Shown here: piece after piece, positions 3,682 to 44,919 of the stretch
Numbering within the stretch: the first letter of the stretch is position 1
Layout of the letters: each line of letters begins with the position of its first letter
From: an uncultured Candidatus Saccharibacteria bacterium
Lineage (GTDB): Bacteria; Patescibacteriota; Dojkabacteria; B142; JAFGMG01
Length of the DNA stretch: 63,916 nucleotides
Direction: 5' to 3'
NCBI GenBank assembly: GCA_964444125.1
Contig: CAYUFB010000003.1
Span: 1-63,916 of the forward strand
The notes under the pieces: model-generated
What the model saw: the letters and a program-made list of their open reading frames with translations, nothing else
Databases searched by the model: none
What the model was told of the DNA's origin: nothing
Made by a program: the position numbers and the translations under genes

Positions 3682-6621
3682 ATGGCAACATATACAACTA
3701 CGATTAAATCTGGGAATACTAAGAAATCTAGATTTTCCAAAAGATCAAAAAGAAATTATCTATCAGCTTCATCACCAACAAGCAGAATCAGATCTGGTTC
3801 AAAAAATTTGAAAAGATCATTTTCTGGTAGATTGAGTCCAAAGAACAGAAAAAGGCTCAAGAAAGCTATGTATGCGACTATCTCTGCATTTGTCCTGGTT
3901 CTATTTATTGGATTTATATTTACACTTTGGTATCTACAAAAGATAAGCAAAGACCTTCCAAGTCCAGATGAGCCATTTGGTAGCAAAAATGTTGCAAGCG
4001 TGATTTATGACAGAAATGGTACCCAATTGTACAAGGTATATAGTAATGAAAACAGAGATCCTCTGATACTACCCTCAGATGAGGCTAAAATTACAGAAGT
4101 AGTTCCAGAGCATGTAGTTTGGGCTTTTTTGGCAGCCGAGGATGTGAATTTCTATGATCATTCAGGCTTTGACGTCACTTCAATGGTCTCTTGCGGAGTG
4201 AAAAATATCGCCGGTACGTCTACTTGTGGAGGTAGTACAGTTACTCAGCAACTTGTCAAACAAACTGTTTTGACAAGCGAAAGAAGACTAGAAAGAAAGG
4301 TTAAGGAATTATTGCTTTCTATGCAGGTCGAAAGACTTTATACAAAAGATCAAATACTTGCTATGTATTTAACTGTAGCACCAATGGGAAGCAACGTATA
4401 CGGTGTCAATACTGGTGCGAAATTTTATTTCGGGAAAGAACTGAAAGATTTAACAATTGCCGAAGCAGCAATCCTAGCATCTTTGCCACAGAATCCTAGC
4501 GTATTATCTCCTACTCTATCTACCGCACCAGAGAAGTCTGAAGCAATGCTTGCAGCTAGGAAAGAGTATGTATTAAGCCAGATGTTGAGACACAAGGATA
4601 AAATAAATAAAGAAACTGGTATAGATGATTTGATCACAGAAGAAAAAATCGAGGAGGCAAAAAATCAGGAATTAGCTTATCAGGAGCCAAGGATTGATAT
4701 TAAGGCTCCGCATTTTGTCTTTTATGTTCAACAACTGTTACAAGAGAGAGGATATAACAATGGTCAGCCATTTACATTAGCTGAGCTTGAAACCGGGGGT
4801 TATAAGATCAAGACAACCTTAGACTATACGTTGCAGCAAACTGCTGAAAGCGCTGTTACAAATGATGGAATTGGGGTTTATGGTGCAAGATATGGAGGTC
4901 ATAATGCTGCATTGATTACAACTAGACCATCAACAGGAGAAGTATTGGCATATGTGGGGTCTAAAGATTATAACGGCGAAAAGGAAGAAAAACTGTTTGA
5001 TCCAAAAGTAGATATTTTGACTTCTTTGCAACAGCCAGGATCATCGGCTAAACCAATTACGTATTATAACGCTTTTAGAGATGCAGTAGCTGCACCAGGC
5101 ACACAATTGATGGATATTCCAATTAGTATCGGTAATTACACTCCCAAAAACTCTGACGGGCAATTTAGAGGATTAGATAGCGTAAGAAATCATTTAGTTG
5201 ATTCTCGAAATATTCCAGCGTTGATATTGGTTGAAGCAACTGGTGTTGGCAAATACATTGATACAGCCAATAAATTTGGATATACGACATTTACTGATGT
5301 ATCAAACTATGGCCCTTCTATCACTTTAGGAGCTGCTGATGTCAAAGCAACAGAGCATGCACAAGCATTTGGGGTATTTGCTAATAGCGGAGACTTTGTT
5401 CAACAAGAAGTAGTATTAGAGATACAAGATAGATACGGCAAGGTAATTTATGAGCATAAGCCTGAAAGAGTAACAGTAGCTGACAAACAAGCAGTATTTT
5501 TGGTAAACGACGTATTAAGAGGAGTTCCTTCTGCTTCACCAAGTGTATTTGCTGGTGATGGTAGACAAGTTGCAGCCAAAACTGGAACTTCAGAGGAACA
5601 AAAAGATACTTGGTATGTGATGTATAGTCCTGATTTTGTAACCGTTGGATGGCTTGGTAACAATGATAATACTCCAATGAGACGGGGAGCTTTTGGTTCT
5701 ACTAGTGTGAAACCATGGGTACAAAAATACATGTCATCAATACTTGCATATTTCCCTGAAAAAACTAGTTTCTCAAGGCCAGGAGGGATTTCTACTAAGC
5801 AAATTTGTCAAACAGTCAATGGTGAAAAACTTTGTAGTACTGGTCAAGATTTAGTAATAGATGATCGAATGCCACCAGCATACTTATCTAAAAAAAAGTT
5901 CCTAGTGTGCGATGATCAGCCAGATAGGATAGCTCGTGAAATAGATCAACAAACGGGTCATGCAGTAGAAAAAGAATTTATGACATATATAATGCCGGTT
6001 GAATCATTGCAAAAGTTTGCAAACGAATACTTATCCGGGCATGGAATGCTTACCCCAACGGAGATGTGTACAATTGAAAGAAGTCCAAATAGTGGTAAAC
6101 CGTGGGCAACTATCTCATCTCCTACAGCTGGAGCTACATATAGCGATAATTTGAGTATTTCTTTTAACGCTTTTACTGCAAGTGGAATTATAACAAAGGT
6201 CAATGTATATATAGACGGGACTTTTGTAACTGAAGTGAAAAATCTGCCATATAATGGAAGTATTTCGTTGGCTGATTATTCAGAGGGAGCGCATACTTTG
6301 AAGCTTGATGTCCATGATAGCAATGGAAATGTCGGAAGCAACTCAGTTGGATTTGTAGTTTCCAAAGGAAGTTTCCAAATTACTTCTCCAGCATCAAGCG
6401 GTTCTTATACAGTGCCACTTAATGTCACAGCGAAATATAATGGGACTGGTAATCCAGGTGCAGTCAGTCTTTGTATCAATAGTACTTGTTCAATATCAAT
6501 GACAAAAAGTGGTGATAATTATAGTGCTACAATAAATACTCTTGCTTCTGGGACTCACAGCATATTTGTTAGAAGTAGTACTGGACGTACAAGTCCAACT
6601 ATGCAAATAGAGATACCATAA
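3682..6621 (+). CDS. Class A penicillin-binding protein (transglycosylase + transpeptidase) with C-terminal Ig-like domains
   Basis: Transglycosylase motifs AAED..FY.H.GFD, GGST+TQQLVK, RK+KE; transpeptidase SSAK, SRN, KTGT; Big-like repeats at the C-terminus. Confidence 0.95.
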   Translation: MATYTTTIKSGNTKKSRFSKRSKRNYLSASSPTSRIRSGSKNLKRSFSGRLSPKNRKRLKKAMYATISAFVLVLFIGFIFTLWYLQKISKDLPSPDEPFGSKNVASVIYDRNGTQLYKVYSNENRDPLILPSDEAKITEVVPEHVVWAFLAAEDVNFYDHSGFDVTSMVSCGVKNIAGTSTCGGSTVTQQLVKQTVLTSERRLERKVKELLLSMQVERLYTKDQILAMYLTVAPMGSNVYGVNTGAKFYFGKELKDLTIAEAAILASLPQNPSVLSPTLSTAPEKSEAMLAARKEYVLSQMLRHKDKINKETGIDDLITEEKIEEAKNQELAYQEPRIDIKAPHFVFYVQQLLQERGYNNGQPFTLAELETGGYKIKTTLDYTLQQTAESAVTNDGIGVYGARYGGHNAALITTRPSTGEVLAYVGSKDYNGEKEEKLFDPKVDILTSLQQPGSSAKPITYYNAFRDAVAAPGTQLMDIPISIGNYTPKNSDGQFRGLDSVRNHLVDSRNIPALILVEATGVGKYIDTANKFGYTTFTDVSNYGPSITLGAADVKATEHAQAFGVFANSGDFVQQEVVLEIQDRYGKVIYEHKPERVTVADKQAVFLVNDVLRGVPSASPSVFAGDGRQVAAKTGTSEEQKDTWYVMYSPDFVTVGWLGNNDNTPMRRGAFGSTSVKPWVQKYMSSILAYFPEKTSFSRPGGISTKQICQTVNGEKLCSTGQDLVIDDRMPPAYLSKKKFLVCDDQPDRIAREIDQQTGHAVEKEFMTYIMPVESLQKFANEYLSGHGMLTPTEMCTIERSPNSGKPWATISSPTAGATYSDNLSISFNAFTASGIITKVNVYIDGTFVTEVKNLPYNGSISLADYSEGAHTLKLDVHDSNGNVGSNSVGFVVSKGSFQITSPASSGSYTVPLNVTAKYNGTGNPGAVSLCINSTCSISMTKSGDNYSATINTLASGTHSIFVRSSTGRTSPTMQIEIP

Positions 6622-15208: not shown

Positions 15209-15284
15209 TGGTGGGCGGTACAAGATTCGAACTTGTGACCCCACGCACGTCAAGCGTGTGCTCTACCAACTGAGCTAACCGCCC
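15209..15284 (-). tRNA. tRNA-Val(GAC), CCA encoded
   Basis: Minus strand GGGCGGT-TAGCTCAGTTGGTAGAGC-A-CACGC-TTGACGT-GCGTG-GGGTC-ACAAG-TTCGAAT-CTTGT-ACCGCCC-A-CCA; 76 nt; all stems pair. Confidence 0.98.
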
Positions 15285-15533: not shown

Positions 15534-16121
15534 TCACTTTTTGTTCTTGATGATACTATCTACGATTCCGTATTTCACTGCGTCACCAGCTGTCATGTAG
15601 AAATCTCTATCAAAATCTTTAAGTATCTTGGCTTTGCTTTGACCTGTATTGTCTGCCAAATCTTGAGCTAATTTGTCTTTGAGTCTAAGTATTTCTTTTG
15701 CAGTTATTTCAATATCACTGGCTTGTCCCTCTGCCCCACCTAGTGGTTGATGTATATGCACAGTACTATTGGGTAGGGCAAATCTTTTGCCTTTTGTGCC
15801 ACTTGAGAGAATCATTGTGCCCATCGAAGCAGTGCTACCTATAGCAACAGTAATGATATCGCATTTGACCAGATTCATTGTATCAATGATCGCAAGGCCT
15901 GCATACACCCCTCCGCCAGGACTTTGAATATACATTTTTATGTCTTTGTTTGGATTTTCTTTTTCAAGAAATAATAGTTGTGCGACTAGTGCGTTTGCTA
16001 CTTGTGAATTGATCTCAGTGCCCAAGAAAACTATTCTGTCTTTTAAGAGCCTTGAATATATATCATACGCTCTCTCTCCGTCTCTGGTTTTTTCAATGAT
16101 TGTAGGTACTAAATATGACAT
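15534..16121 (-). CDS. clpP: ATP-dependent Clp protease proteolytic subunit
   Basis: [32 protein letters not shown]. Confidence 0.98.
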
Positions 16122-16144
16122 TATTTTGGATAATAATATGGCTG

Positions 16145-16153
16145 ATTATACCA
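16145..16153 (-). promoter_or_regulatory. Extended -10 promoter (TGgTATAAT) for clpP
   Basis: Minus strand TGGTATAAT about 25 nt upstream of the clpP ATG. Confidence 0.5.
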
Positions 16154-16167
16154 TTTAATAGTCTACA

Positions 16168-16194
16168 TAAACAAAAACATCCCTTCCGGGATGT
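16168..16194 (-). terminator. Intrinsic terminator
   Basis: Minus strand ACATCCC-GGAA-GGGATGT followed by TTTTGTTT. Confidence 0.8.
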
Positions 16195-16261
16195 CTTTGC
16201 TTGCACTTTTAACTATTTTTACTGCCTTTTGCTTTTTGAGAAATTAATTACTTAACTTCTC
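16168..16261 (-). ncRNA. Candidate ~94-nt small RNA (5' GNRA hairpin, A-rich linker, terminator)
   Basis: Promoter, predicted +1 at the first base of a 10-bp GUAA-loop hairpin, terminator; no ORF longer than 5 codons. Confidence 0.55.
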
Positions 16262-16267
16262 ATGTTC

Positions 16268-16297
16268 ATAATATCAGATACTTTTTCTGAGTGTCAA
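16268..16297 (-). promoter_or_regulatory. Sigma70-type promoter TTGACA-N18-TATTAT with extended -10 TG
   Basis: Minus strand TTGACA ctcagaaaaagtatctga TATTAT. Confidence 0.7.
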
Positions 16298-16444
16298 GCA
16301 ATATGTTCCAAAAATTTATTTTTTCTGCAATGAATGTTACGTGCGCTTGTTCTTGTGGTTGGGGTGTTTGGAGAGATCGTTCAATAAACTGTTTGTGGAT
16401 AATTAGTTAACCGAACTTTTTGTTCAAATTATTACCAAAATTTA

Positions 16445-16966
16445 CTATTTTGATGTAATTGTTAGAGTATCTCCTTGTGATATGTTGTTTTGCTTAAACC
16501 ATCCAGCATTTGTTTCTATTACATATTGAGCTGGCCTTGAAGACGTGTATCTTACTGATGTATCAAGTGGTTTGGCATTTTCTTCGATATTGATGATTGT
16601 ATATCCTTGATCAAGAAAGGCTATATCAAGAGGAATATAGGTATTTTTCATCCAAAAAGTGCGTATTTGACTATCAGGAAATAAAAATATCATACCTGAG
16701 TTCTGATCTAAGCTCTTTCTATTCATCAAGCCTGTTTTGTATTCTTCTTCGTTGCTGGCTTTTTCCAAATACAACAACACATCTCCGGTTTCTGGCGACT
16801 TCATAAGGTAGTCATATTTGTTTTCTGAAAGAATGTTTACTGGGGTGTATTTTTCGTCACTTGATAAAGATGAAATGATTGCAAGAAATAGTAATATAAT
16901 ACTTGTAGGCAATAGGAATAGCAGAAAAAGTAATTTTTTTGAAATTTTGATTTGTTTCATTAACAA
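16445..16966 (-). CDS. DUF192 domain membrane-anchored protein
   Basis: GLMNRKSL....GMIFLF, FWMKNTYIPLDIAF, YVIETNAGW. Confidence 0.92.
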   Translation of the reverse strand: MLMKQIKISKKLLFLLFLLPTSIILLFLAIISSLSSDEKYTPVNILSENKYDYLMKSPETGDVLLYLEKASNEEEYKTGLMNRKSLDQNSGMIFLFPDSQIRTFWMKNTYIPLDIAFLDQGYTIINIEENAKPLDTSVRYTSSRPAQYVIETNAGWFKQNNISQGDTLTITSK

Positions 16967-20811: not shown

Positions 20812-20816
20812 GGTGT

Positions 20817-20982
20817 CAGTATACAGTATTCAGCATTCAGCGTACAGCGTACAGTATTCCCCGCCAGAGGCGGGACCGCCTTTGGCGGAAGTATCCAGTA
20901 TCCAGTGTTCAGCATACAGTCTAGAGTGTGCAATAACCTTTGCATGGGAGGATAAACTTAACTCACAACTCAATGCTCTGGC
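20817..20982. repeat. Heptamer tandem-array element, copy 1, with a 30-bp GC-rich double-hairpin insert
   Basis: CAG(T/C)(A/G)T(A/T) x6, CCCGCC-AGA-GGCGGG-A-CCGCC-TTT-GGCGG insert, 6 more heptamers, short CTCA... inverse array. Confidence 0.85.
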
Positions 20983-31490: not shown

Positions 31491-34400
31491 TTACTTGCAT
31501 GTTCCAACTAAGCTTGTCTTAGATATTGATCCATAAGTTTCAAGATTTCTGGCTGGCTTTGTTATGTTTATAAATATATTGTGCTCTGTTTCTATTGTGT
31601 AGTAATTATTAATTTTTTCTATGGATGTGATTGTCGATTTGTTTGGGTTATATATTGCATATTCGGAATTTTCAAGACAGTTGATAGTTACTTTTTCATA
31701 TGAATTATCTGCCTTTTCGTCAATCCCCAATACCATTGCTTGTGTCGGGTTTTCAATTGACTTTTGAGCGGTAACTTGATGGGATTGAGTAGTCTTGCTT
31801 GAATCATTATAGACCTCACTAAACTTGATTTCTGATAGATAACCTACTGAAAAAATTATCGACAATGTGAGGCCAAATGCTGCCATAGGGTCGAATTTGC
31901 CTGAAATGGATTTCAAGAAATCCAATATCGATTTCAAAAATGATAATAATCCAAATAATTGATTGCCTACGTTTATCTGACCAGTTAGTTTATCTATCCA
32001 TGAGCCAAAAATGGCGCCGAGGGTGGAACCAATTGTGCTAAATAATATCGTCCCAATCGGGCCTAAGAAGGCAGACCCAATAGCTACTCCTATAATACCT
32101 CCCACCATAGCACCTGCTACTACTCCGGTAGTTAATGAGAGTCCTAGCACCTGTGTAGCTATGATGAGCCCTAATCCCGCACCTAGTGCACTCGTGCCCA
32201 TCAGAAGTCTTGTACTAACTCCAGAAAAGGATAGAAGCATTTTTACATTATGAAGACTATCAAGTGCAGTACCTAAATTAGCCAACATGTGAAGGGGTTT
32301 TCTAAAATTTACCCATTCACCCACTAATCCTTTAATATCTAAATTTGACAAGAATTTCATCTGATTTGAAATCCAGGGAATTGAAGATAAAAGTCCAACT
32401 GATTCAAAGAACGGCATTGAAGCCAGTCTTGCCATCCACTGATTCTCCATAGCTTTGGCAACGATATTGTTTGTGACTCTATCAAGGATCAATCTCCCAG
32501 AATATGCTGTGCCAAAGCCAATTGCTGCTCCAAGAAGTGGATTGCCTAATGCCGTGCCTATTAGAGTCCCAATACCCATTCCATAAAATCCTGCATTAAG
32601 TGATCTGGATGCCGATGATATCCAATGTCTAGGGCCTCTAAATGTCGCAACTGCAGGTCCTTCCATTCTGACACTATTTAGATAGTGCTTTGTTCCAAGA
32701 TAGCCATATTTGCTTTGAAATCTTGCGATAAATTTAAATGGACTAGGCGATCTGGAAGCTAAAGTATCTGATAATAGTTGATTCGCTGTACCTAATAAGG
32801 TCATTGCTCCAGCAACGGGAATTGCAGCAGGCCCTAGCCCAATTGCGGCACCTACTAGACCCGATATCACACCGATTCTAGCTCCGGATCCAACAGCTCT
32901 AGCACCTGCTGTAAGACCATTGTATCCTCTTCTGGCTAACACAAAGCTTTTGCCTACTCTTCCATTCCACATTGCTGTTTTCATTCTAGAGAGTCTTTTC
33001 ATTCCTGTGTATGTATAGGCAGCATCTTTGGCAAATGAAACGGCATTCTTGATAGCATTGACTGCTCTGCCAACAGTAACTTCATATAATCCTCTAAGAG
33101 CAAGTAATGTTTGGCTTCTGGATTTTGATTTCTTTTTCCTTCGCTCATACTCTTCTCTTGTCGAAGTTCTATTGCGCAAGCTAAATCTGGTATTAAATCC
33201 GCGTTTTCTTTTTTCATAATCTCCAAAGCTTACATTAATATTTACCTTATTGGTTATAAAATTTGCAAAGCCTTGATCGACGTTGCTAAAGAAGGTGCGA
33301 ATTTGTCCGGGTTTTTGATTGACCCAGCCTCCAAATCTACTTGATGACCATTTGTCAACTCCAAATCGAACTGGAGCAAATAATCTGCTACCATATACTC
33401 TTCTAGCACCTTGTCTAGTTCCAGTTTTTAATTTGCCAAATCCGGCACTTGTCCACTCGGCTGCAGGTAACAATGTCTTGGCTGATAACGTAACTACAGC
33501 TTCTTTTCTTCTTTCATAGTACTTTTTTCGCATTCCTTCTATAATCTCAGAAGTCCTAAAGCTCATGGAGAAATCTTCCCAATTTTGATCACTGGCAAGT
33601 CTGTATAGTTTTTTGTTTTCCTCTGCTCCACGTTCTCTGTTTAGCGCTGTTATCTCACTAGCTTGATCGCGAATTTTTTGTGTATCGTCTGTGTCATTTA
33701 TGGTATCAATGAATTTATCTACTCTGTATTGCAATGTTCTAATTGCCCTGTCTGCATTTGGATCATCGCTATTGTATAGTGTAGCAAGCAGGTTCTTATA
33801 TCTTTGATTTATCTCTGCAGGAGTTAATGTCTCCGCATCATTTAAGTCCAGTGCCTTTAAAGGATTTGTCTCACTTAAGATCCTTCTTATTGCTCGTTTT
33901 TGCATAGAGCCTGTAACTGTATCTATTTCTTCTAAAACTTCACGTTTAAGTTTTTCACTTCTTGTTAAACTTATTGGCACATCAATACTTGCGAGATTTC
34001 TGACTTCTTCTGAAGCATTGTTAATAGCTTTTCTAAAAAACCTCTCCAATTCTCCAATTTGAGCTTCTTTTTCTACTATTTGAGCTTTTTTGTTACTAAA
34101 TGCTTCTCTCCAGTTTTGTTCTACCTTCGTATTTAGTACTTGAGATCTAAGTGCGTCGACTTCTCTTTTTAGTTTTTTGATCCTGTCTTGGGTTTCAATT
34201 ATGGCTAGATCTGTTTTGAGTTGTGGGATCGGCTCTATCTGGTTTAATATCTGTTCTTTCATGTCTCTATCTCTTGTACTTTCATATTGTCTCTGGAGTG
34301 CTTCACGTAGTTGAAGTTCTTTTTGTCTCTGATCTCTGATTGCCTTTAGCTTAAAGTCAGGGTTTGCCTCTCTTTCCTTTTTTTCTTTTTCTTCTCTTTC

Positions 34401-34964
34401 TTTTTGAGCTTCTTCAGTTTCTTTTGGTTTAGATTTAGGTTTGACAGCCGGTTCATTAGATTGATCCGAAGTCCCTTGTTGATTATCTTTTGGTTCAGTT
34501 GCCGGCTGCGTATCTTCATCAGGATTTTTCGTCACTCTCACATTTTGCTCTGCGGCTTTCTTTCTTTTTAGTTCTGCCTCGATTCTTTCTTTCTCTGCGA
34601 TCTCAGCAGCCAAAGCTTCAGCTTTTGCCTTGTCTTCATCGGGTACAACTGTTGGATCTTCTGGTACATCTTTCTCTAATTTCGAAATTGCTTCATCTAT
34701 TTGGGCTATTCTGGTATTAATTTCATCAAGTCTATCTTGTGCTTTTTTCAATAATTCCTTGCGCTTATCTATCTCTCCTTCGGAATAGGTTTCATTAACT
34801 TGACTTAGTTCTTCTTCTCTTTGTTTTAGCTTCCTTACTGCATCCTTATATTCATATGAATCGAGAATGTTTTTTTTCTGACTTTCTAAACGTGAGAGTG
34901 TAACGCTACTGATAGGTTTTGCTACAAATTTACTTCCTGTGTTTTGAGGATTCGGTGCTGCCAT
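31491..34964 (-). CDS. Large hypothetical protein: coiled coil, Gly-rich hydrophobic helices, degenerate M23-like C-terminal domain
   Basis: ~1157 aa. ATG at 34964 lies 1 nt after the upstream stop (the ORF track starts at TTG 34973). Confidence 0.8.
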   Translation of the reverse strand: MAAPNPQNTGSKFVAKPISSVTLSRLESQKKNILDSYEYKDAVRKLKQREEELSQVNETYSEGEIDKRKELLKKAQDRLDEINTRIAQIDEAISKLEKDVPEDPTVVPDEDKAKAEALAAEIAEKERIEAELKRKKAAEQNVRVTKNPDEDTQPATEPKDNQQGTSDQSNEPAVKPKSKPKETEEAQKEREEKEKKEREANPDFKLKAIRDQRQKELQLREALQRQYESTRDRDMKEQILNQIEPIPQLKTDLAIIETQDRIKKLKREVDALRSQVLNTKVEQNWREAFSNKKAQIVEKEAQIGELERFFRKAINNASEEVRNLASIDVPISLTRSEKLKREVLEEIDTVTGSMQKRAIRRILSETNPLKALDLNDAETLTPAEINQRYKNLLATLYNSDDPNADRAIRTLQYRVDKFIDTINDTDDTQKIRDQASEITALNRERGAEENKKLYRLASDQNWEDFSMSFRTSEIIEGMRKKYYERRKEAVVTLSAKTLLPAAEWTSAGFGKLKTGTRQGARRVYGSRLFAPVRFGVDKWSSSRFGGWVNQKPGQIRTFFSNVDQGFANFITNKVNINVSFGDYEKRKRGFNTRFSLRNRTSTREEYERRKKKSKSRSQTLLALRGLYEVTVGRAVNAIKNAVSFAKDAAYTYTGMKRLSRMKTAMWNGRVGKSFVLARRGYNGLTAGARAVGSGARIGVISGLVGAAIGLGPAAIPVAGAMTLLGTANQLLSDTLASRSPSPFKFIARFQSKYGYLGTKHYLNSVRMEGPAVATFRGPRHWISSASRSLNAGFYGMGIGTLIGTALGNPLLGAAIGFGTAYSGRLILDRVTNNIVAKAMENQWMARLASMPFFESVGLLSSIPWISNQMKFLSNLDIKGLVGEWVNFRKPLHMLANLGTALDSLHNVKMLLSFSGVSTRLLMGTSALGAGLGLIIATQVLGLSLTTGVVAGAMVGGIIGVAIGSAFLGPIGTILFSTIGSTLGAIFGSWIDKLTGQINVGNQLFGLLSFLKSILDFLKSISGKFDPMAAFGLTLSIIFSVGYLSEIKFSEVYNDSSKTTQSHQVTAQKSIENPTQAMVLGIDEKADNSYEKVTINCLENSEYAIYNPNKSTITSIEKINNYYTIETEHNIFINITKPARNLETYGSISKTSLVGTCK

Positions 34965-34965
34965 A

Positions 34966-36159
34966 TTAAACAATCATCAACCCAGGTTTGAGCCCATGAG
35001 TTGCCATAATAATTAAATCTGTCGTGCTTTCTGTTGATAATTTCACTTGATAATATTCTGTGATAGTATCAAGCACATTGCCGATTTCATCAATAGGATT
35101 TACGGTCACTGTGTATTCGTTGTTTACTGCCAGTTTCTCTAGTCTGTCTGCTTCTCGAATTGTTATATAATAAGGATCACGAGGTGTGATCTTACCTTCC
35201 AGGATCATTTTTGATAATTTCTGTAATATGTGACTATAGAAATCTTTTAGTGTCTCAGGCTTTAAATAATCACGTGCATACCTTAATTGTGTGAGGATAT
35301 CTAGAATAAAAATATCAAGAGGGATAATTTCGTCTGCTCTATAAATTAGTAATTCTTCAAGTTTCTTGTCTTTGGCTTGTCTTTTTAGAAAATCTAGAGA
35401 GTTCTTCCTAGCTTCATCTACTGGAATCCCTTTGAATATTTGATCTATGGTAAATAAATACATACTGTCATAAATAACTTGAAGGATCTGAAATCCAATC
35501 TCCTTGATCTCTTTTTCGTGATTGATCGCAAAAAATGCCCAACTAGGAAAATTTATTAGTTCATTATAATAATATCCACCAATTGATTCTAATATGCTAT
35601 ATGTTGCTATCCGAGAAGCTATCAAGTGATACTTGGCTTCGAACTCTTTCGTTGCTTGCATGTCAAAAAAGCCCTTTTCGTCAATTATTAATTCGTATGG
35701 CATATCAATTGTGACTGTTTCTTTGAGTTGTGTTTCACTCTCACGTTCGATTTGAAGCTTCACTTTGTTTTCTTCAGTCATTTCGGGCAGGAAAAATTCC
35801 AGTGAATAAATTGAAAACTCTGGAAGAGATAAATGCCATCTGTATTGTTGCACCCTGTGTTGAGCGTATAGAAAGTTGTATACGACCAAATCAAGATTAT
35901 TCTTTTCAAATTCTAATAGAGCTGGTGGTGGGTAATTGAATACCGGATTTTTGACTGTATCGATATACTCATTCATCAATTTCTTAATCTGTGGATCTTT
36001 TAGAGATTTTTGAATATGTTTTTCAATTTCTTGGACCTTTGGGAGGAAATCTCCATCAAGTGATTCTGGCAACACGAAAACAAAGCCATTAGATTTCAGC
36101 TTTTTGTATAATTGATCTTCAATTTCATTGATTTTTTGATCGATTTTCTCATCATACAT
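34966..36159 (-). CDS. Hypothetical soluble protein (397 aa)
   Basis: Long ORF tightly packed in the operon; no motif recognised. Confidence 0.8.
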   Translation of the reverse strand: MYDEKIDQKINEIEDQLYKKLKSNGFVFVLPESLDGDFLPKVQEIEKHIQKSLKDPQIKKLMNEYIDTVKNPVFNYPPPALLEFEKNNLDLVVYNFLYAQHRVQQYRWHLSLPEFSIYSLEFFLPEMTEENKVKLQIERESETQLKETVTIDMPYELIIDEKGFFDMQATKEFEAKYHLIASRIATYSILESIGGYYYNELINFPSWAFFAINHEKEIKEIGFQILQVIYDSMYLFTIDQIFKGIPVDEARKNSLDFLKRQAKDKKLEELLIYRADEIIPLDIFILDILTQLRYARDYLKPETLKDFYSHILQKLSKMILEGKITPRDPYYITIREADRLEKLAVNNEYTVTVNPIDEIGNVLDTITEYYQVKLSTESTTDLIIMATHGLKPGLMIV

Positions 36160-36171
36160 ATTTATCTTTCA

Positions 36172-37848
36172 TCATTTCGAAGGTTTCTTGGGACCAAATG
36201 GTTGAGTGAATTTACCTACAACAGCAGATGCTCCACCAAATCCACCTGCCAAACCAGTTGGCAATCCCATAAATGGAGCACCACCAACAAGAGCTCTTGT
36301 AGTTCTCTGGCCTGGGGTCAATCTATCTGCATACGCCGGCAATACATTAAGCGCTTGATCAAGTGCATCGGGTATGACTGGAGTCGTCATGAATAACCCA
36401 AAAGCCAAAATCATTTGTACAACACTAATTTGACTTGTTTCTGTGCTATCGAGCACCGCACTGGAATATCCTAATAATGGCGGTAAAAATTTCAATCCAT
36501 TCATAAATTCAGTATGGTGGGTGATGACTATCATAAGCAAAAATACTGCATATACTGCTACAAATGAAAGTGATGCTGATAAAAGAGTCTTGAAATATCC
36601 AAATATAGCTTTGGCACCTTGTCCGGGGATTGCTACTGTAAGCATAATAAATGGTGATATTATGGGATAAAGAACCAATACAAGGTACTTGGTCAAGAAT
36701 TTCAAAAACAGCTTGACTGAGGTAGACAACGCGGCAATTGCAAACATAAGCTGGATAAACACACCGGTAAATCCATTGTCTAACATACCAGTCAATACTT
36801 TTGTGACTACTCCTCCTAAGACATTGGTCTGAGGTATGACAGATTTTGTATCAGCGTTGATTATATCTACATTTGATGTGATAAATATCTCCCATGCACT
36901 CATGGCAGGATCGTCTATTTGAAGATGGTTTCTAGCAGGGTCTTCTTCAGTGCCAAATGTACCCCCAAATTCTTTGACATTTTTAATTTCAAAGCCAAAC
37001 TTATCAAGTGTCGTTGGTGCCCATACGTCTTTGTACCCAGGTGACCAGGAATTTTGGACGAGAACTTGTTGGACCAGATTTGATCCAACTGTGATCATAT
37101 CTATGGCAAGTCCGGATAGCGGATAGCTCAAAGTGATCATAATCAATGCTACAATGATATTTGGGATAGAATTGGCTATTGTAACTTGAGTTTGACCACC
37201 AAGGTTGCTTCTAAATGCTACCATGAAAGCAATTATGATTATGATCAAAATCAAGGCGAGATAAGCAATATTTCTAGTAATTGTCCAAAAAGCCTGAATT
37301 GGCTTAAGGATATTGTATCCAAGTCCAGGATAGTATATCCACGATGCTTCTCCTTCTGTCTGGGCATGAGCTACATGTCCTGTAGTGATTTTTTCCCATT
37401 CTTGTTGTGCGTATACTATGCCACTTGCAGGTGGATTGTGATACATCTGCTGATTGAATGACATGACAGTATCAAGTGCCCCTGGTTGATTGATGTATAA
37501 ATACTGGCCACTTGCTGATGTCAGAGGCTCCCCAGTTTCGCTATCTCTAATCAATAATGGTTGTGGAATTATTTCGTTTTTTAATCCAGAAAGTAAAGCA
37601 CTAATCATATTGCCATCGACGCTTTTAGTAAGCTCTTGTGTGTTTTTATCATAATATACGGATCCATCTCCGGATATATATGTTTTTGCCGCACTATCCG
37701 TACTTTCGTTATTAATAAGATATATATTCCCATCTACATCTTGGATTCGAGTTTTGGCTGCTTGTGCGGGGCTTGTAAATAATGATGTGAATACCAAAAG
37801 TGTAAGTAGTGAAACTAATAATATTTTGGTTTTTGAAAATTTGGGCAT
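36172..37848 (-). CDS. VirB6/TrbL-like polytopic membrane protein (CPR secretion-locus type)
   Basis: Signal peptide, then W...RNIAY..L+L+++++AFM+.FR....Q..VT+.N.+P.I++AL++IT.SY.+.GL.ID and further TM helices, a pattern I associate with CPR VirB6-like proteins (recalled, not searched). Confidence 0.55.
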   Translation of the reverse strand: MPKFSKTKILLVSLLTLLVFTSLFTSPAQAAKTRIQDVDGNIYLINNESTDSAAKTYISGDGSVYYDKNTQELTKSVDGNMISALLSGLKNEIIPQPLLIRDSETGEPLTSASGQYLYINQPGALDTVMSFNQQMYHNPPASGIVYAQQEWEKITTGHVAHAQTEGEASWIYYPGLGYNILKPIQAFWTITRNIAYLALILIIIIIAFMVAFRSNLGGQTQVTIANSIPNIIVALIMITLSYPLSGLAIDMITVGSNLVQQVLVQNSWSPGYKDVWAPTTLDKFGFEIKNVKEFGGTFGTEEDPARNHLQIDDPAMSAWEIFITSNVDIINADTKSVIPQTNVLGGVVTKVLTGMLDNGFTGVFIQLMFAIAALSTSVKLFLKFLTKYLVLVLYPIISPFIMLTVAIPGQGAKAIFGYFKTLLSASLSFVAVYAVFLLMIVITHHTEFMNGLKFLPPLLGYSSAVLDSTETSQISVVQMILAFGLFMTTPVIPDALDQALNVLPAYADRLTPGQRTTRALVGGAPFMGLPTGLAGGFGGASAVVGKFTQPFGPKKPSK

Positions 37849-37931
37849 AATCTAGACAATTTTGATAATCTTCAGAGTCAGTATAGAAAGTTTAGAAAAA
37901 GATAGCAAGCAAGTAAGAAAGAAAATTTTGC

Positions 37932-38525
37932 TTAAAGACTTGATAAATTGACTGGGGGTGGGTTGATAGGTTTATCGTTATTGTTGTAGTCAAGAACTTG
38001 TGGCGGATTTTGACTTGTCGCCGTTTCAATCGTTGCTGATTGAGTTTGAGATTCACTGGGCGAAACTGCTGGTTGCTGGGGTTGGGTTTGCACGGACGTA
38101 TTGTCAGTTTTTTGTTTATTCTTTAGATCTTCAAGAACTTCTTTGTTAATTGATAAATCTGCCTGAACGTATTGTAATACGTCTAAAGCATCCTCTTCGT
38201 TTAGTTTATTTAGTGCCTGAGAAATAATTTTTTGATCATAGATATCTAATGCATCTTTTAATTTTTGTTCAAAACTTTTGCGATCTATTTCAGTGATGTT
38301 TTTTTGAATAATTTCGTAGGCAGTAGTAACATCTGTTAACTCTTCTATTTCGGTCATGACTGTAGATTTCTTTTCTTTAGGTATTGCACCATTTCTAAAT
38401 TGCTCTAAAAAAAACTCGTTAATTATTTCTAAACCACCTTCTAAATAATTTTCATAGTATTCCCTAAGCTCAGGCTCGCTTGAAGGTTTAAATAATTTAT
38501 TGATTATGCCAATATTTAAATTCAT
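37932..38525 (-). CDS. Small acidic helical hypothetical protein with Q/P/T-rich tail
   Basis: 197-aa ORF, E/D-rich. Confidence 0.8.
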   Translation of the reverse strand: MNLNIGIINKLFKPSSEPELREYYENYLEGGLEIINEFFLEQFRNGAIPKEKKSTVMTEIEELTDVTTAYEIIQKNITEIDRKSFEQKLKDALDIYDQKIISQALNKLNEEDALDVLQYVQADLSINKEVLEDLKNKQKTDNTSVQTQPQQPAVSPSESQTQSATIETATSQNPPQVLDYNNNDKPINPPPVNLSSL

Positions 38526-38543
38526 TTTATTTTATTGAAATAT

Positions 38544-41500
38544 TTAAGAACTAAAGCCATACATATTTCTAGTTTGAGTAGAGATGCTATATCCTCTTTG
38601 TTTCATATTTTCTATGAGTGCATTCTCTATTTGACCAAGTATACTAATGTTCCGTTCTATCATGCCCATAAAACTTCCATAGTTTAGATTTCTTTCTCCT
38701 CTTCTTATCCCAAAAGATTCAAAAAGAGCTTCGGTCATTGGATCTTTGTCTGCTGGAAGTTCTCCCGTTTGATTATATATATATGCATCATTAAAGAATG
38801 TTAGGATTTTGTCTTTGTTCGTAACTTTTCTTGACAATTCTTTTAGGGACTTTTCTCTACTTCTAATATCTTTATTAAGCGATCTGATGTATTCGTTATT
38901 CAATTTGCGGAATAATAGTAATCCGGATACCCCAAAAATGGCGCCAAGTCTTATACTTCCGATACCAAGAGGTATACCTACGATACCAAGAGACGTACCT
39001 AGTCCAGAACCAATCAGTGCTGAAGTGAAGCCAATCTTTCCTATTAATTTAAGCTTGTTTCCCCACTTCTTGAGCCTTGTTTTTAATAGTTCAAGTCTCA
39101 ATGTGAATCGATCTCTTTCTTGGTCTTCAATTAATTCTTTTAGATCTTCTTTTTGTTGTTGTATTTTCAATGTTTCTAGTAGAGTTTCTCTTGAAGCATG
39201 TCCAAAAAGATCTTTCCTCTCTGCAGATTCTTTGTATTCTTCTGGATAATTTGTTCTTAAGTAATCGTTGATTTCACTATCCTTAAATCCTAGCTCTGCC
39301 AATTTATCTTTAATTTCAAGTAATTCAATGTACCTTGTTGCTGGACTTCCTTCTGTATTGATTTTGCTAATAACCTCTTGAGCAAGCTTGCCCATAAATT
39401 CGACCCTAGGACTTACTGTAGTGTTTTTGGTACTTTCAATATTTGCTAACTGATTAAATAACTCAACAAATTGATTTCGATCAACTGTATCAGTGTTCGG
39501 GGAGTATCCCAATGCTTCGAGTGCCTTTTCTGCTTCTTTCCTTGCTTCGTCTAATTCTAATCTTGTCACTCCTGGGGCACCAAACGATCGATCAGCTTTT
39601 ATAATAGCCTGGTTTATAGTTCTGACCATATCTTCCCTTCTTCTTGAGTTTAATTCTCTTTGTATTTCATTCATTGTAAGTTCACTATTGCCGATTAAGG
39701 CCCACTGTCCACTTTCTGTAAGAGCTGCGTCAATATGTTTCTGGATATCAGCATCTTCAAGTCCTAATTTCCTTGCTTCTCTTATAGCCTTCAATGCTGT
39801 TTCTTTGGCTTTGTCGATATCTTGTGGTGTGGCTATGGCAAGTGCTTGATCCACTGCATTGACCAACATTCTGATTTTTTCTTCTGCATCAGGAAATTCG
39901 GTATCTATCATCTCTCGATATTTACCAATTAGTTCATTTCTTAGTTGTGCCCTTCTTGTTGGGTTCATTTCTGCAAGATCTATATTCATAGATTGTACAT
40001 CTCGTCTGATGAGGCTTTGAGTTTTTTGGTTGAAACTAGTCGGTGTTTCCGTTATTGATAATATTCTTTTTGCATCTTCAAGTTCTTTACGTTGTGCATC
40101 GGTACGCCTTGCTTCACTAATCCTTTCAATTTCCAAAATTTTCCTCTTTGCATCATTAATCGCAGCAGAATCTACTCTTTTTTTCATCAAAGCTTTGGCA
40201 TTATCTTGTTTTTCTTGTCCAAGTTTTTCTAATAGTGTTTCCCATTCTTCTAGATCAATCTCTTCGGATTTCTGTAGTTCTGCTGGTGTAGGTCCATCAT
40301 CATCAAGACTAGGGGCTGGTACATTCTGGCCGCGCTGTCGATCATCAATATTCTTTATTAGTTGGAGTTCATGCAATGCGTTTATGATATCCTCGTCTTC
40401 AAGTTCTGTAAGCATATTTATGAACGTTTGTTGTCTATTTTTGTCCACAAGTGTTGTAAAAAGTGTATTGATATGATCTGTAAGGCTATTAGGGTCCTCA
40501 ATTAGAGTAATAATAGTTTCATAATATGCGTTGTAAACAAGAGTGCCTGCAGTGGCAGGATATGCATCTCTTAGTTTTTTGGCTACTGAACCTATATTTT
40601 CTTTTTTATCTTTTAATTGATTTATTAATATTTGATCTGCTTTGTATCTTGTTGCATGGTTGAAGTCACCAGAACTATTTGCGTTAATAATAAAAGTTGT
40701 GGCAGAATCAAATTTGTCATCAGCGAATAATTCTTCAATATTTCTTAAGGCATTATTGTTAATGATATCTCCATTTTCTTCTAAATAATATCCTTCTAAT
40801 TCAAGTACGATTTGCGCAGAAAATTTTTCGATATCTGTCATATCTTCCGGTAGTCGTTCTAATAATCGCCCATCCTTTTGCCATCTCTTTTTGTGAGCTT
40901 CTGCAGTAATTGCAAAATCTGATATTTCAATATCTGGCGCAACTCGTTTTTTTAGTTCGGTTAGTTTGTTATACTCTGAACTAATGTCGGCAAGTTTTGC
41001 CTCTGTAAATGACGGGATTCCAAATATGTGACTATGTTGTGTTGCTAAATAATTTAAAATTGTGATCTCTGCTTGTGTCGGAGAACTTAAAGCATTTAAT
41101 GTTGCTATTCTGTGTTCATTGCGCCTGCCATCTGTACTCAGGCCGATTTGTATACATGAAAATAATATTCTGTTTTGTAAATGGTCTGATAATCCTGTAA
41201 GAATTGCATCTTTGTCTTTTCTGTTTTTAATTTGTTTTATTACTTCAACTAAAAGAGTAGGCATAGACTCCAACTTATCTTTGTCTGTGGAATGAATTGA
41301 ATCATTTAGAATAATTGCGAGATTCTCTGCTATTTTTTCCGATGAGTCAGCATTATTGAATATTTCTTGAAAATTAATTTCCTGAGGCGCAGAATTTTCT
41401 CCTGGAGTCGCTGTTCCTGCCTCAACTGGTGCCCCACCTGGAGCTGCATCAGGTCCTGGAATAAGAGCTTCGTCTGTCCCTTCAGATTCTGCGTCAGCAG

Positions 41501-41804
41501 CCTCACCAGAAGCTTCCTCAGTTGCTGGAATAGAACCATCGGATACTACAGATGTCACACCTTGATGTTCATCTGGAGCAGGCGCTTCAGCTGGTGCCCC
41601 ACCTGGTGCGGCTGCTGTTAAATCGGGAATCTCTGCCGGTTTAGGAACTATAGTTCTTTTAGCTTTTTGTGCAGATCTAGAAAGAAGTTCGCCAGCTTTC
41701 TCTTCTGTCATTGGTTGGCCAAGAAACTCTGGCTCTGCTTCTGACATTTCTGGCCGTAGTCCTTTTTCTCCCTCGCTATGATCTGGTAGTTTTGGTGTGC
41801 TCAT
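38544..41804 (-). CDS. Large coiled-coil protein (1086 aa) with acidic Pro/Ala-rich N-terminus and C-terminal Gly-rich hydrophobic hairpin
   Basis: APGGAP.EA twice (16-bp DNA repeat at 41426-41441 and 41591-41606); IGKIGFTSALIGSGLG...VSGLLLF; ATGA overlap with the upstream gene. Confidence 0.85.
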   Translation of the reverse strand: MSTPKLPDHSEGEKGLRPEMSEAEPEFLGQPMTEEKAGELLSRSAQKAKRTIVPKPAEIPDLTAAAPGGAPAEAPAPDEHQGVTSVVSDGSIPATEEASGEAADAESEGTDEALIPGPDAAPGGAPVEAGTATPGENSAPQEINFQEIFNNADSSEKIAENLAIILNDSIHSTDKDKLESMPTLLVEVIKQIKNRKDKDAILTGLSDHLQNRILFSCIQIGLSTDGRRNEHRIATLNALSSPTQAEITILNYLATQHSHIFGIPSFTEAKLADISSEYNKLTELKKRVAPDIEISDFAITAEAHKKRWQKDGRLLERLPEDMTDIEKFSAQIVLELEGYYLEENGDIINNNALRNIEELFADDKFDSATTFIINANSSGDFNHATRYKADQILINQLKDKKENIGSVAKKLRDAYPATAGTLVYNAYYETIITLIEDPNSLTDHINTLFTTLVDKNRQQTFINMLTELEDEDIINALHELQLIKNIDDRQRGQNVPAPSLDDDGPTPAELQKSEEIDLEEWETLLEKLGQEKQDNAKALMKKRVDSAAINDAKRKILEIERISEARRTDAQRKELEDAKRILSITETPTSFNQKTQSLIRRDVQSMNIDLAEMNPTRRAQLRNELIGKYREMIDTEFPDAEEKIRMLVNAVDQALAIATPQDIDKAKETALKAIREARKLGLEDADIQKHIDAALTESGQWALIGNSELTMNEIQRELNSRRREDMVRTINQAIIKADRSFGAPGVTRLELDEARKEAEKALEALGYSPNTDTVDRNQFVELFNQLANIESTKNTTVSPRVEFMGKLAQEVISKINTEGSPATRYIELLEIKDKLAELGFKDSEINDYLRTNYPEEYKESAERKDLFGHASRETLLETLKIQQQKEDLKELIEDQERDRFTLRLELLKTRLKKWGNKLKLIGKIGFTSALIGSGLGTSLGIVGIPLGIGSIRLGAIFGVSGLLLFRKLNNEYIRSLNKDIRSREKSLKELSRKVTNKDKILTFFNDAYIYNQTGELPADKDPMTEALFESFGIRRGERNLNYGSFMGMIERNISILGQIENALIENMKQRGYSISTQTRNMYGFSS

Positions 41805-42067
41805 TTCTTGGCTAAATTTTTATTTAAATAATCAATTAATTCTCCATTTTCGGCTAATTCGTCGAACAATAAAACATTCTCCAAAATCTTGCTGTCTGGC
41901 ATTTTGTCTTTTCTAAGGTTTTTCACCATTTCACGCAAAAAACTATTTGGAATCCTAGTACCAGTTTCCATCATTTTTCTTTTTCTATCCTTGTCGGCAA
42001 CGACTTGTTCAGTAGATCCGTCAGCGATATTTTGTAGTATCTGTTGTGCGTTTAGTGACATAAACAA
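41801..42067 (-). CDS. Small hypothetical protein, paralog of 42118-42375
   Basis: Aligns end to end with its neighbour (LQNI..G.T...V...+...KM.E.G.++PN......MV..LR....P...I...+L.FD.LAE..EL++YL). Confidence 0.85.
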   Translation of the reverse strand: MFMSLNAQQILQNIADGSTEQVVADKDRKRKMMETGTRIPNSFLREMVKNLRKDKMPDSKILENVLLFDELAENGELIDYLNKNLAKK

Positions 42068-42117
42068 TAAATTATTTATTATTCATTATGAATACAATTT
42101 ATAAAAAAAGCAAAAAA

Positions 42118-42375
42118 TTATTGCACTTTTTGTTTTTGTTTTGCTAAATACTCCACCAATTCATCTTTTTCGGCAAGTTGGTCGAAAAATAATATCCTGT
42201 CTACAATTTCATTTTCTGGTACGCCTCTGGCTCTAAGCCTTCCTACCATATTTTGCATCACAGCGTTTGGCACTTTTTTGCCATCTTCAACCATTTTGTA
42301 TTGTTTCTCTTTTGGATCCACAATATCGTCTGTGTTGCCGGCTATTATGTTTTGTAGTGTATTGGTTGGTGTCAT
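42118..42375 (-). CDS. Small hypothetical protein (85 aa), paralog of 41801-42067
   Basis: Start placed at MTPTNT; the track's 18-aa extension just translates the heptamer array. Confidence 0.85.
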   Translation of the reverse strand: MTPTNTLQNIIAGNTDDIVDPKEKQYKMVEDGKKVPNAVMQNMVGRLRARGVPENEIVDRILFFDQLAEKDELVEYLAKQKQKVQ

Positions 42376-42381
42376 TTTGAT

Positions 42382-42578
42382 CAGTATACAGTATTCAGTA
42401 TTCAGCTTACAGTATAGAGCATTAAGCATTCAGCATAAAGCATAAAGCATACAGTATTCAGCATACAGTATTCAGTATCTAGTTTTGAGTCTTGAGTAAT
42501 AGCAAGAAAAATTGCTGATATATAATTCAAAGCTCAAGACTCATAACTCATAGCTCATGACTCAATACTCAACACTCA
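42382..42578. repeat. Heptamer tandem-array element, copy 2
   Basis: 17 in-phase NAG(T/C)AT(A/T)-type heptamers (42382-42500), AGCAA-GAAAAA-TTGCT hairpin, ~7.5 inverse CTCA(A/T)NA heptamers (42526-42578). Confidence 0.92.
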
Positions 42579-43013
42579 CTGTTCAACGCTCTCATCCAGT
42601 TCTTCGTATGCTTGGCGAATTTCTTCATTTTGTTCATCCATTACTTTGAGCAATTCTGCTTTTTGTTCATCGTTAAGACTATCTCTAACCTTCTCTATCA
42701 AATCCATTTCAAGATCTCTCATCTCATCTTCAAATCTCTCCCAGAACTCAGTTAAATCAAACTGTACGTTTTTGTCTAACCATCTTTTGTAATCATCAAA
42801 TTTCTCCTTGGTTAGATTATCTGCATTTTCTAAATAATCTCTAATTTGCTCAAGTTGATTATCATCTTCAATTCTGTCGTTTAGATAAAGAACAAAATTT
42901 ATATTGAATTTGTGTTCTATAAGTCTAGCCAATTCTTCTAGAATATGGACGATTACTTCTTCTTTCTCTCCTGCAATTTCCAGTATTTTTTTTATTAGAG
43001 CAAAATTGAACAT
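42576..43013 (-). CDS. Small acidic helical hypothetical protein
   Basis: 145-aa ORF, very E/D-rich. Confidence 0.82.
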   Translation of the reverse strand: MFNFALIKKILEIAGEKEEVIVHILEELARLIEHKFNINFVLYLNDRIEDDNQLEQIRDYLENADNLTKEKFDDYKRWLDKNVQFDLTEFWERFEDEMRDLEMDLIEKVRDSLNDEQKAELLKVMDEQNEEIRQAYEELDESVEQ

Positions 43014-43026
43014 TATTTATATTAAT

Positions 43027-44370
43027 TTAATAATAGCTTGTAGGTTTTTGTTTTTTTATCCGTTCAGCTTTCATTTTGTTCCTAATGCCTTTGACTCTGT
43101 CGTCGACATATCCAAGAGCTTTTTCGTATTGTTGGGCTTCCTTTGTTTTGTTTTCCAACCTTGCAGCTTTTGCCTGATTGGATATCAAGAATTTCTCCTG
43201 TTCTTTGGTATCGTAGACTGCAAGAAGACCTTTTTTGTGCATAAGATCCTGGATACGTCTTGTAATTTTGTGCATACCATATAGAGCACCAAGAATACCA
43301 ACTCCAGGAATTACTGTCTTGTCGAGTTTGCCTGGTGATGGAAAAGTACCGAAGTCGGGTCTTCCTATATATTGAGAATTGGTATTATTTTCATTTTCAT
43401 TTAAAATAGGAGTAGGGAATTGTCCTTTATAAAAAACTGAACCTTCGCCAAAAATACCCGCAAAAGGAGCTCCTACAACTTTGGTCGCACCAATGGCCAA
43501 TTTGTCAGGATTGACCCCAAGTCCTGCCATCTCCATAAGTCTGCCTGTATACCACATAGTCTTTTGAAATAAGCCACCTTCTTTGAAATTCGTTGTATGA
43601 TAATCAAAAAATCCTGTTTCAATTCCTTTGCCCCATCCTACAATTCTTTGTCCAATATTGAGTAGTGCGTTTTTACCTTTTTCTAATATTGGTCCCCCAA
43701 AAGTTTTAAGGGTCTCAAATGCTTCTTTGGGGTTTGTACCTGCCAAAACACTTCCTCCGAAATATACTAATGCTAGAGGACCTAAGATTTTGATTGTGTT
43801 TTTGCCCAGTCTTTTTATATCTTCTAGAACTTTTCTTCTTGCGCCACTTTGAATCTCAATCGCTCTTTGATATTGTACATCTGATACCTTGAATTTGTCT
43901 TTGATACTTTCAATTACTTCTTTTGCAGTCCTTGTTTCAGGTACGGGTGCTTCTTCAGGTTCCTCTGGTCTTCTACCACGTATTACTACGTTGTGATTAA
44001 CTGGTATATCAATGTCAGCAAGATCTCTTGGATCAACTTGTACACGTTCTGTTGGTGCAGGTCGTCTGACAATAAGACCATCTGGTTCGGCTGCTGCTGG
44101 TTGACGATATTCTTGTGCTGCAGGTTCGGTAGGTCTTGTAACTTGTGTAGCTGGCTCTGTTGGAGTGGTTGGTGCAGTTCGTGCTGGGCTTGATAGTATT
44201 GGAGGAGAATAAGAACTATCCGCAGTCCTACTTTGTGGATTGGCAGTATTAGCTGTTGGAAGTTGTGTCGGTTGAGTTGGCCTTGTAGGAGCTGTTATAT
44301 GTATGGGAACCTCTGCAATAGGTCTTGCATCCATACCTCCAGTTGTCTCTCCAGGATTACCTGACATCAC
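43027..44370 (-). CDS. Hypothetical protein with P/T-rich disordered N-terminus and hydrophobic segments
   Basis: 447 aa; APTRPTQPTQ/PTEPA repeats; ILGPLALVYFGGSVLAG and IPGVGILGALYG. Confidence 0.82.
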   Translation of the reverse strand: MMSGNPGETTGGMDARPIAEVPIHITAPTRPTQPTQLPTANTANPQSRTADSSYSPPILSSPARTAPTTPTEPATQVTRPTEPAAQEYRQPAAAEPDGLIVRRPAPTERVQVDPRDLADIDIPVNHNVVIRGRRPEEPEEAPVPETRTAKEVIESIKDKFKVSDVQYQRAIEIQSGARRKVLEDIKRLGKNTIKILGPLALVYFGGSVLAGTNPKEAFETLKTFGGPILEKGKNALLNIGQRIVGWGKGIETGFFDYHTTNFKEGGLFQKTMWYTGRLMEMAGLGVNPDKLAIGATKVVGAPFAGIFGEGSVFYKGQFPTPILNENENNTNSQYIGRPDFGTFPSPGKLDKTVIPGVGILGALYGMHKITRRIQDLMHKKGLLAVYDTKEQEKFLISNQAKAARLENKTKEAQQYEKALGYVDDRVKGIRNKMKAERIKKQKPTSYY

Positions 44371-44425
44371 AAAAGTATATAATATTTTTTCATTCTAGGC
44401 GAAAATAGGTGGCTTCGCAAGGGGA

Positions 44426-44893: not shown

Positions 44894-44919
44894 GAAATTA
44901 TTATTAAATTAATTAAATA

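Follow-up and report, generated by a model that had tools for sequence, protein, structure and literature searches.

What is the short, promoter-bearing segment that lies ahead of clpP in this genome, a small RNA gene in its own right or a part of the clpP control region? The window analyzed here is the whole stretch of 63,916 nucleotides, and the segment begins with a promoter in the ~150-nt intergenic spacer that follows the DUF192 gene. Read on the minus strand, it has a promoter, a 5′ hairpin, an A-rich unpaired stretch and a terminator with a GGAA loop, in that order. The features of the segment and its neighbors are as follows.

16292-16297, minus strand: −35 hexamer TTGACA, from reading of the sequence and a consensus scan; an equivalent TTGAC(A/T) is found in 34 of 34 distinct homologs.
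16268-16276, minus strand: extended −10 element TGaTATTAT (TG at 16276-16275, TATTAT at 16273-16268), with an 18-nt spacer.
16238-16261, minus strand: 5′ hairpin GAGAAGUUAA-GUAA-UUAAUUUCUC, 10 bp, from the predicted fold; specific to one subfamily.
16226-16237, minus strand: A-rich spacer AAAAAGCAAAAG, kept in two of three subfamilies in the alignment and different in the third.
16201-16225, minus strand: invariant core GCAGUAAAAAUAGUUAAAAGUGCAA, defined by identity across loci and mostly unpaired by prediction.
16169-16202, minus strand: intrinsic terminator from the predicted fold, with a 15-bp stem, a GGAA loop and the U-tract UUUUUGUUU (16177-16169).
16145-16153, minus strand: clpP promoter with the extended −10 element TGGTATAAT, read from the sequence; it is outside the small RNA and marks its downstream boundary.
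16121-15534, minus strand: clpP (Pfam CLP_protease).
16966-16445: DUF192 gene, upstream of the small RNA, as is mutL.
15209-15284: tRNA-Val, downstream, together with thrS and infC; from a search for tRNA and tmRNA genes.

The predicted start is G16261, located 7 nt past the −10 element and forming the first base of the 5′ hairpin. A first-pass annotation of this DNA had described a TTGACA-N18-TATTAT promoter with a TG extension and a start near G16261, and all of these elements are present on the minus strand. The hairpin that it placed at G16261 and the GGAA-loop terminator with its U-tract are likewise found, both in the sequence and in the predicted fold. In a consensus scan this promoter is the top promoter-like site between 14 and 19 kb, with 11 of 12 matches and the TG. 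Over the whole window, three sites with at least 11 of 12 matches are observed and 3.3 are expected; for sites that have the TG as well, one is observed and 0.24 are expected. The promoter match in a single sequence is therefore weak evidence that does not go beyond chance, and as a result the case rests on comparison with relatives. It is the recurrence of the entire arrangement in every homolog that places the unit above chance.

There is no other terminator-like site between the DUF192 stop (16445) and the promoter of the small RNA. The same spacer contains a perfect match to the DnaA-box consensus, TTATCCACA, at 16394-16402 (minus strand). This box is present as a single copy, is missing from locus L001 and has no GC-skew switch nearby; it is probably a chance match. 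A DnaA-box reading of the locus was rejected because both a GC-skew switch and conservation of the lone perfect box are lacking.

The predicted RNA, of 93-98 nt, folds at −32.7 kcal/mol, with a z score of −8.5 relative to shuffled sequences. Its predicted length is ~93 nt in the window and about 70-96 nt across the family. The A-rich stretch (16237-16203, minus strand) leaves ~36 nt unpaired. This stretch had been described as an unstructured A-rich linker of ~45 nt; its composition and its unpaired state hold, while its length does not.

The unit recurs in relatives of this bacterium. A clpP-anchored scan, with one genome per species, places the window among Dojkabacteria-type Patescibacteria; the best ClpP identity is 82%. 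Over all 19 loci of related Patescibacteria that were sampled by way of clpP, 13 have the unit. The 25-nt string GCAGTAAAA(A)TAGTTAAAAGTGCAA is located upstream of clpP in six of the 11 closest species representatives, and each of these copies has TTGACA and a −10 element before it and a terminator after it. A search of metagenomes was made with an exact pattern, on both strands and independently of clpP, imposing only 20 positions of the core. Of its 46 matches, 34 have the promoter, the terminator and the mutL-clpP context, and the remaining 12 are evident chance matches. The gene order in the 34 contigs is mutL-(DUF192)-RNA-(0 to 1.1 kb)-clpP-(tRNA-Val)-thrS, all on one strand. The small RNA is always located between mutL/DUF192 and clpP, on the same strand, and it is retained without DUF192 in four loci (L082, L090, L091 and L114). 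The pattern search found no second copy of the small RNA. The carriers include the complete genomes OY969472.1 and OZ246402.1.

A covariance model built from 34 distinct sequences recovers only the same seven loci among 81 clpP-anchored sources, at 73-93 bits. In a second sample, made up of contigs with ClpP homologs of 71-80% identity, seven of eight are carriers, at 63-90 bits. The scores over the clpP-anchored samples are bimodal, being either 63-93 bits or nothing, with no intermediates. The model detects no divergent homolog in 73 other clpP loci (Chloroflexota, Saccharimonadia, Kiritimatiellia and others); two weak matches were dismissed, one as a coding region and the other as a plain terminator. 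A phage origin was rejected as well, since viral contigs gave no match. The family is confined to a Dojkabacteria-type clade of Patescibacteria.

The loci L005, L007, L008, L009, L011 and L133 are non-carriers, and two of these have another unit in the slot. In L005 (AP024679.1, a complete Dojkabacteria genome), a consensus promoter and a terminator are kept at 3850-3930, between DUF192 and clpP. The unit has lost UAGUUAAAAGUGCAAG, the 3′ half of the core, and its transcript would be only ~45 nt long. It looks like a natural deletion derivative, and the loss indicates that at least one lineage can do without the core; this natural deletion could be exploited experimentally. In L008, the same slot (3790-3900) is occupied by an unrelated unit of a promoter, two hairpins and a U-tract, which may be a different small RNA.

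There is one part of the RNA that hardly changes among the carriers. The core GCAGUAAAA(A)UAGUUAAAAGUGCA, of 24-25 nt, is the same in six genome loci, 34 metagenome loci and seven further clpP-anchored contigs, bar a few changes. They amount to a 1-nt indel in the A-run, a C in place of G1 in L084, and a U in place of the final A in L129 and L130. Within the carrier set, sequence identity drops to 64% for ClpP, 33% for MutL and 28% for ThrRS. The C and the A that flank the search pattern were not imposed by it, and they are fixed in every match that has the RNA context. The mean unpaired probability is 0.69 for the core, compared to 0.23 for the terminator. The A-rich linker is therefore the constrained and presumably functional part of the RNA. 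As a stretch of 24 bases that is identical across very distant relatives, the core probably contacts something fundamental. The invariance of this unstructured segment is rRNA-like. In a single-copy gene with a near-consensus promoter it is an unusual property among bacterial small RNAs, and it is a sign of an interaction under strong constraint. The core is a direct and not an inverted repeat, and it is not palindromic. It does not, therefore, look like dif or parS, and that reading was rejected.

The promoters of the 34 distinct homologs have a 16-18-nt spacer and a −10 element, most of them with a TGn extension; the −35 position of L010 was judged by eye. The terminators are long and GC-rich, and are followed by 7-9 U. 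The first-pass annotation had proposed a search for covarying stems upstream of clpP in related genomes, and such covariation is found in the terminator: 92.9% of the cells in the family alignment are paired, and 11 of the 12 pairs are changed on both sides. None of 500 shuffles reached these values, and no slid register comes close. The terminator loop varies across the family (GGAA, GACA, GCAA, GAAA and UUCG).

The 5′ part of the RNA is of three types. In type 1, which includes the window, there is a 5′ hairpin of variable sequence. Hairpins of other sequence are found at the same place, with the arms GAAGUUAA/UUAACUUC, GGAAUUCA/UGAAUUCC, GUAAUC/GAUUAC and others. In type 2 there is no hairpin, and the RNA start is ACAAUUNAAUAAAGC. 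In type 3 the RNA start is AGAAAAGUUAA, and an element AACUAUUU follows it in L089, L093 and L099. About 13 of the 34 members are without a 5′ hairpin; the predicted hairpin is an optional, lineage-specific element. The emphasis that had been placed on it stands in part: the hairpin is present here, but in only about a third of the family, and its GNRA loop is not conserved. Near the 5′ end of the RNA, all three subfamilies have a second element, A(A/G)(U/C)UAA (GAAGUUAA, ACAAUUAA and AAAAGUUAA), that resembles AGUUAA of the core. Several subfamilies also carry an element complementary to UAGUUAA of the core.

The position of the unit raises the possibility that it is a cis-acting leader or attenuator of clpP, which would consist of a second clpP promoter and a conditional terminator that is relieved by something binding the core. 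In agreement with this, the unit is directly upstream of clpP and on the same strand in most loci, and some contigs from RNA-labeled runs pass through the terminator. However, clpP has its own extended −10 element in carriers and non-carriers. In the window this is TGgTATAAT, 24 nt before the ATG at 16121, and nearly every related locus, whether or not it has the RNA, has TGnTATAAT or TATAAT before clpP. The separate extended −10 element of clpP that the first-pass annotation had suspected is thus kept across relatives. Moreover, about 10 loci have unrelated genes between the RNA and clpP, over 0.4-1.1 kb, the inserted genes being a PLDc_N-like membrane protein, a nucleotidyltransferase-like ORF and an opposite-strand ORF (L004). 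The small RNA is not a clpP leader, as it tolerates intervening genes, of which one is on the opposite strand. The length and GC content of the terminators and their 7-9 U also argue against a conditional terminator. No conserved alternative antiterminator pairing is possible, as the terminator arms vary while the core does not. We consider a leader highly improbable, and the mere clpP attenuator that had been named as the alternative outcome is contradicted by the separate clpP promoter and the intervening genes. It is even less probable that the core acts as DNA, in the form of a CtsR-box-like operator with the tandem heptads AGTAAAA and AGTTAAA, the promoter and the terminator being incidental. 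The CtsR box of clp genes, which we take to be RGTCAAA-NAN-RGTCAAA, has its heptads exactly 3 nt apart and overlaps the regulated promoter. Each heptad of the core is one position off the CtsR consensus heptad, and the element adjoins clpP, a classical CtsR target. The spacing of the heptads is, however, 2 nt, or 1 nt in the indel variants, compared to the fixed 3 nt of the CtsR box. In addition, the site does not cover the clpP promoter, which follows 25 bp to more than 1 kb downstream of it, and all copies have a strand-specific promoter and a U-tract in fixed orientation.

A very small protein, or a non-stop mini-ORF, could start at the invariant GUG, with the core as its Shine-Dalgarno-less initiation region. 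The core does resemble the A/U-rich regions that are typical of gene starts in this genome, where Shine-Dalgarno sequences are lacking, and GUG-CAA is invariant. On the other hand, no stop interrupts the GUG frame before the U-tract ends in 31 of 38 members, the same number as for both other frames, and the seven others have in-frame stops 9-24 nt after the GUG. The conservation at the peptide level ends after the first two codons, and the variation downstream tracks RNA pairing and not codons. With a 1-nt indel inside the core and three equally open frames, the small RNA is not coding, and a peptide has a negligible probability among the explanations considered here. The independent non-coding unit that the first-pass annotation had suspected is therefore borne out: its own promoter and a covarying terminator are found in ~38 distinct homologs, and it is separable from clpP by 0.4-1.1 kb. 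We regard the unit as very probably a genuine, independent and conserved non-coding RNA gene.

The membrane protein that is inserted in some of the loci (L002, L097/L106, L101, L115 and L127) has ~113-130 aa, ends in ...FVYKDAQKSG...LLYFLVGKKK and gives a weak Pfam match to PLDc_N.

Known RNA families do not account for the unit. At the gathering threshold, a scan of the whole window against Rfam gave only the tRNA-Val, and a permissive scan of 16000-16600 gave only chance matches, with 15-18 bits compared to thresholds of 40-117. This agrees with the first-pass annotation, which did not recognize the RNA as a member of a known family. ARAGORN found no tmRNA. Searches of the literature, including with the sequence itself, gave no match to the small RNA and no described small RNA for Patescibacteria (candidate phyla radiation). 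SRP (4.5S) RNA is a long hairpin that has the domain IV internal loops below a GNRA loop. It was rejected as an identity for the GGAA hairpin, whose terminator stem is perfect, covaries and has no internal loops, whose loop varies, and which has no Rfam SRP match. Hfq class II small RNAs have ARN repeats and a U-tail and are found in Hfq-encoding genomes. As judged by eye, the A-rich stretch has only an irregular ARN pattern, and no Hfq was found in the 64-kb window.

The public data from RNA runs consist of assembled contigs only. The strain of the window is found in one DNA run and partly in one RNA-labeled run, whose contigs do not cover the small RNA. Contigs that contain the core come from more than 20 RNA-labeled runs, of sludge, wastewater, sediment and soil. 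One of these contigs ends within 2 nt of a predicted start and others cross the promoter or the terminator, and DNA carry-over or read-through is possible. Three metatranscriptomes, with a depth of only 2-7, contain clpP and thrS fragments of a carrier strain and have no contig that covers the small RNA; small RNAs are usually lost from such libraries. We infer that a discrete transcript exists.

How might the RNA function? The best explanation of the whole, to which we give a probability of roughly 0.55, is that of an independent small RNA gene whose core acts in trans, likely with a protein or ribonucleoprotein partner. A strong σ70-type promoter would fire at ~G16261, and the intrinsic terminator would stop transcription near 16169. 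The terminator hairpin, together with the 5′ hairpin in this lineage, would then serve as end-protecting clamps that hold open the ~36-nt A-rich single strand between them. The working part would be the core, GCAGUAAAA(A)UAGUUAAAAGUGCA, displayed in an unpaired state and acting in trans. Its likeliest partner would belong to the basic gene-expression machinery, as a conserved protein or ribonucleoprotein that recognizes the sequence itself. The RNA may be a titrating decoy or a stable component of a ribonucleoprotein, and would form no long antisense duplex. The metagenome search, which included the opposite strand, found no complementary sequence in another context and no complement of at least 20 nt, and a long perfect antisense target is thereby excluded. 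It is this absence of a long complement together with the extreme conservation, and only these two, that leads us to prefer a protein or ribonucleoprotein partner over short-seed pairing. The 64-kb window encodes no obvious candidate for an RNA-binding partner.

The main rival to such a partner is base pairing, in which the core would use short overlapping seeds (<20 nt) against U-rich sites in mRNAs or in a stable RNA. The layout of the RNA, in which a 5′ hairpin and a terminator flank a conserved segment that is unpaired, is the classical one for trans-acting small RNAs. In L089, L093 and L099, the upstream AACUAUUU pairs with AAAUAGUU of the core, which indicates that this segment is used for pairing in at least some lineages. 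A specific version of the pairing model would have the RNA cover a boxA-like site. Read in antisense, the core gives UGCACUUUUAACUA, which is similar to boxA of rRNA-operon leaders, taken here as UGCUCUUUAACAA, at 12 of 14 positions with one indel. boxA, the NusB/S10 site, is a GCUCUUUAACAA-like sequence on the transcribed strand of the rRNA leader. At the small RNA locus the boxA-like string is on the non-transcribed strand.

Several observations count against pairing, however. Among 8,516 segments scanned in the 64-kb window there is no outstanding target and no outlier beyond the scanning expectation, and 283 kb of DNA from carriers gave no conserved site. In the clpP mRNA, the best predictions differ in place from locus to locus, and the metagenome contigs lack a complement of at least 20 nt, as described above. 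The seeds of known small RNAs are conserved over ~8-15 nt at this depth, not over 24 nt. Moreover, A-rich seeds cannot pair with the ribosome-binding regions, which are A/U-rich here and without Shine-Dalgarno sequences. We therefore regard pairing as a tentative alternative, and an unlikely one. Two specific targets were rejected: the clpP mRNA, where the sites are inconsistent and a recurring 10-nt match to the AQLLFLE codons is found in only four loci, and a 10-nt match at ~42.1 kb in the window, which is merely the 3′ end of a small protein gene.

A bolder proposal makes the RNA a housekeeping-grade partner of the core expression machinery in a lineage whose translation starts without Shine-Dalgarno sequences. 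It could be a mimic of an mRNA leader that would occupy 30S subunits or protein S1, or an antisense or decoy for a site of the NusB/S10 boxA type. We consider this rather doubtful. If true, it would account for a 24-nt unstructured segment that is invariant in an rRNA-like manner, and the RNA would be a new class-specific 'stable RNA' alongside 6S, SRP RNA and tmRNA.

The window has other unusual features. Almost none of its 38 large ORF starts (for example 3682, 10289 and 16121) has a Shine-Dalgarno sequence, the upstream regions being A/U-rich, and many genes have a TATAAT only 20-35 nt ahead of the start codon. This combination implies that leaders are short and that initiation does not depend on Shine-Dalgarno sequences. 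Tandem arrays of 7-nt period (CAGCATA/CAGTATT, CTCAATA) are found in intergenic DNA upstream of genes at 42382-42478, 42522-42578, 51283-51343 and ~20812-20850, and similar heptad arrays are found in L095 between the RNA and clpP. From 31491 to 50016 there is a run of large ORFs (1160, 397, 558, 1086, 447 and 1698 aa) without a Pfam match, adjoined by a weak lysozyme-like (Pesticin) Pfam match. These ORFs may be a surface or secretion gene cluster.

Patescibacteria have genomes of ~1 Mb with few regulators, and are mostly uncultured. With one copy per genome and a fixed gene neighborhood, the small RNA family is a compact marker of its clade, and it could give a first view of RNA-based regulation in Patescibacteria.

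A comparison can be made here with several known systems. Terminator-type leaders of stress and protease genes share with the unit the position upstream of clpP and the layout of promoter, leader and terminator. In comparison, clpP has its own promoter here, the unit can be uncoupled from clpP, and there is no alternative structure. DapZ and MicL, which are of the 3′-UTR type with an internal promoter, are similar in that the small RNA shares the first terminator after the upstream mutL-DUF192. The promoter is intergenic here, however, and not within the upstream coding sequence, and the unit persists without DUF192. CsrB/RsmZ and 6S RNA are strongly expressed; the decoys and 6S RNA resemble the family in having a near-consensus promoter and in conserving sequence rather than antisense complementarity. 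The many GGA hairpin loops of CsrB-type RNAs and the ~180-nt rod with a central bubble of 6S RNA are absent here.

The Hfq-independent small RNAs RsaE/RoxS of Gram-positive bacteria have short C-rich motifs that pair with Shine-Dalgarno regions, whereas the motif here is 24 nt, A-rich and with no target found; there is no sequence similarity between them and no Rfam match. As in the present family, RsaE/RoxS have their own promoter, a length of ~70-100 nt and, flanked by a 5′ hairpin and a terminator, an unpaired motif that is conserved, and both families are found by conservation and not by a complex fold. The small RNA upstream of clpP is a previously undescribed family of a known kind of element.
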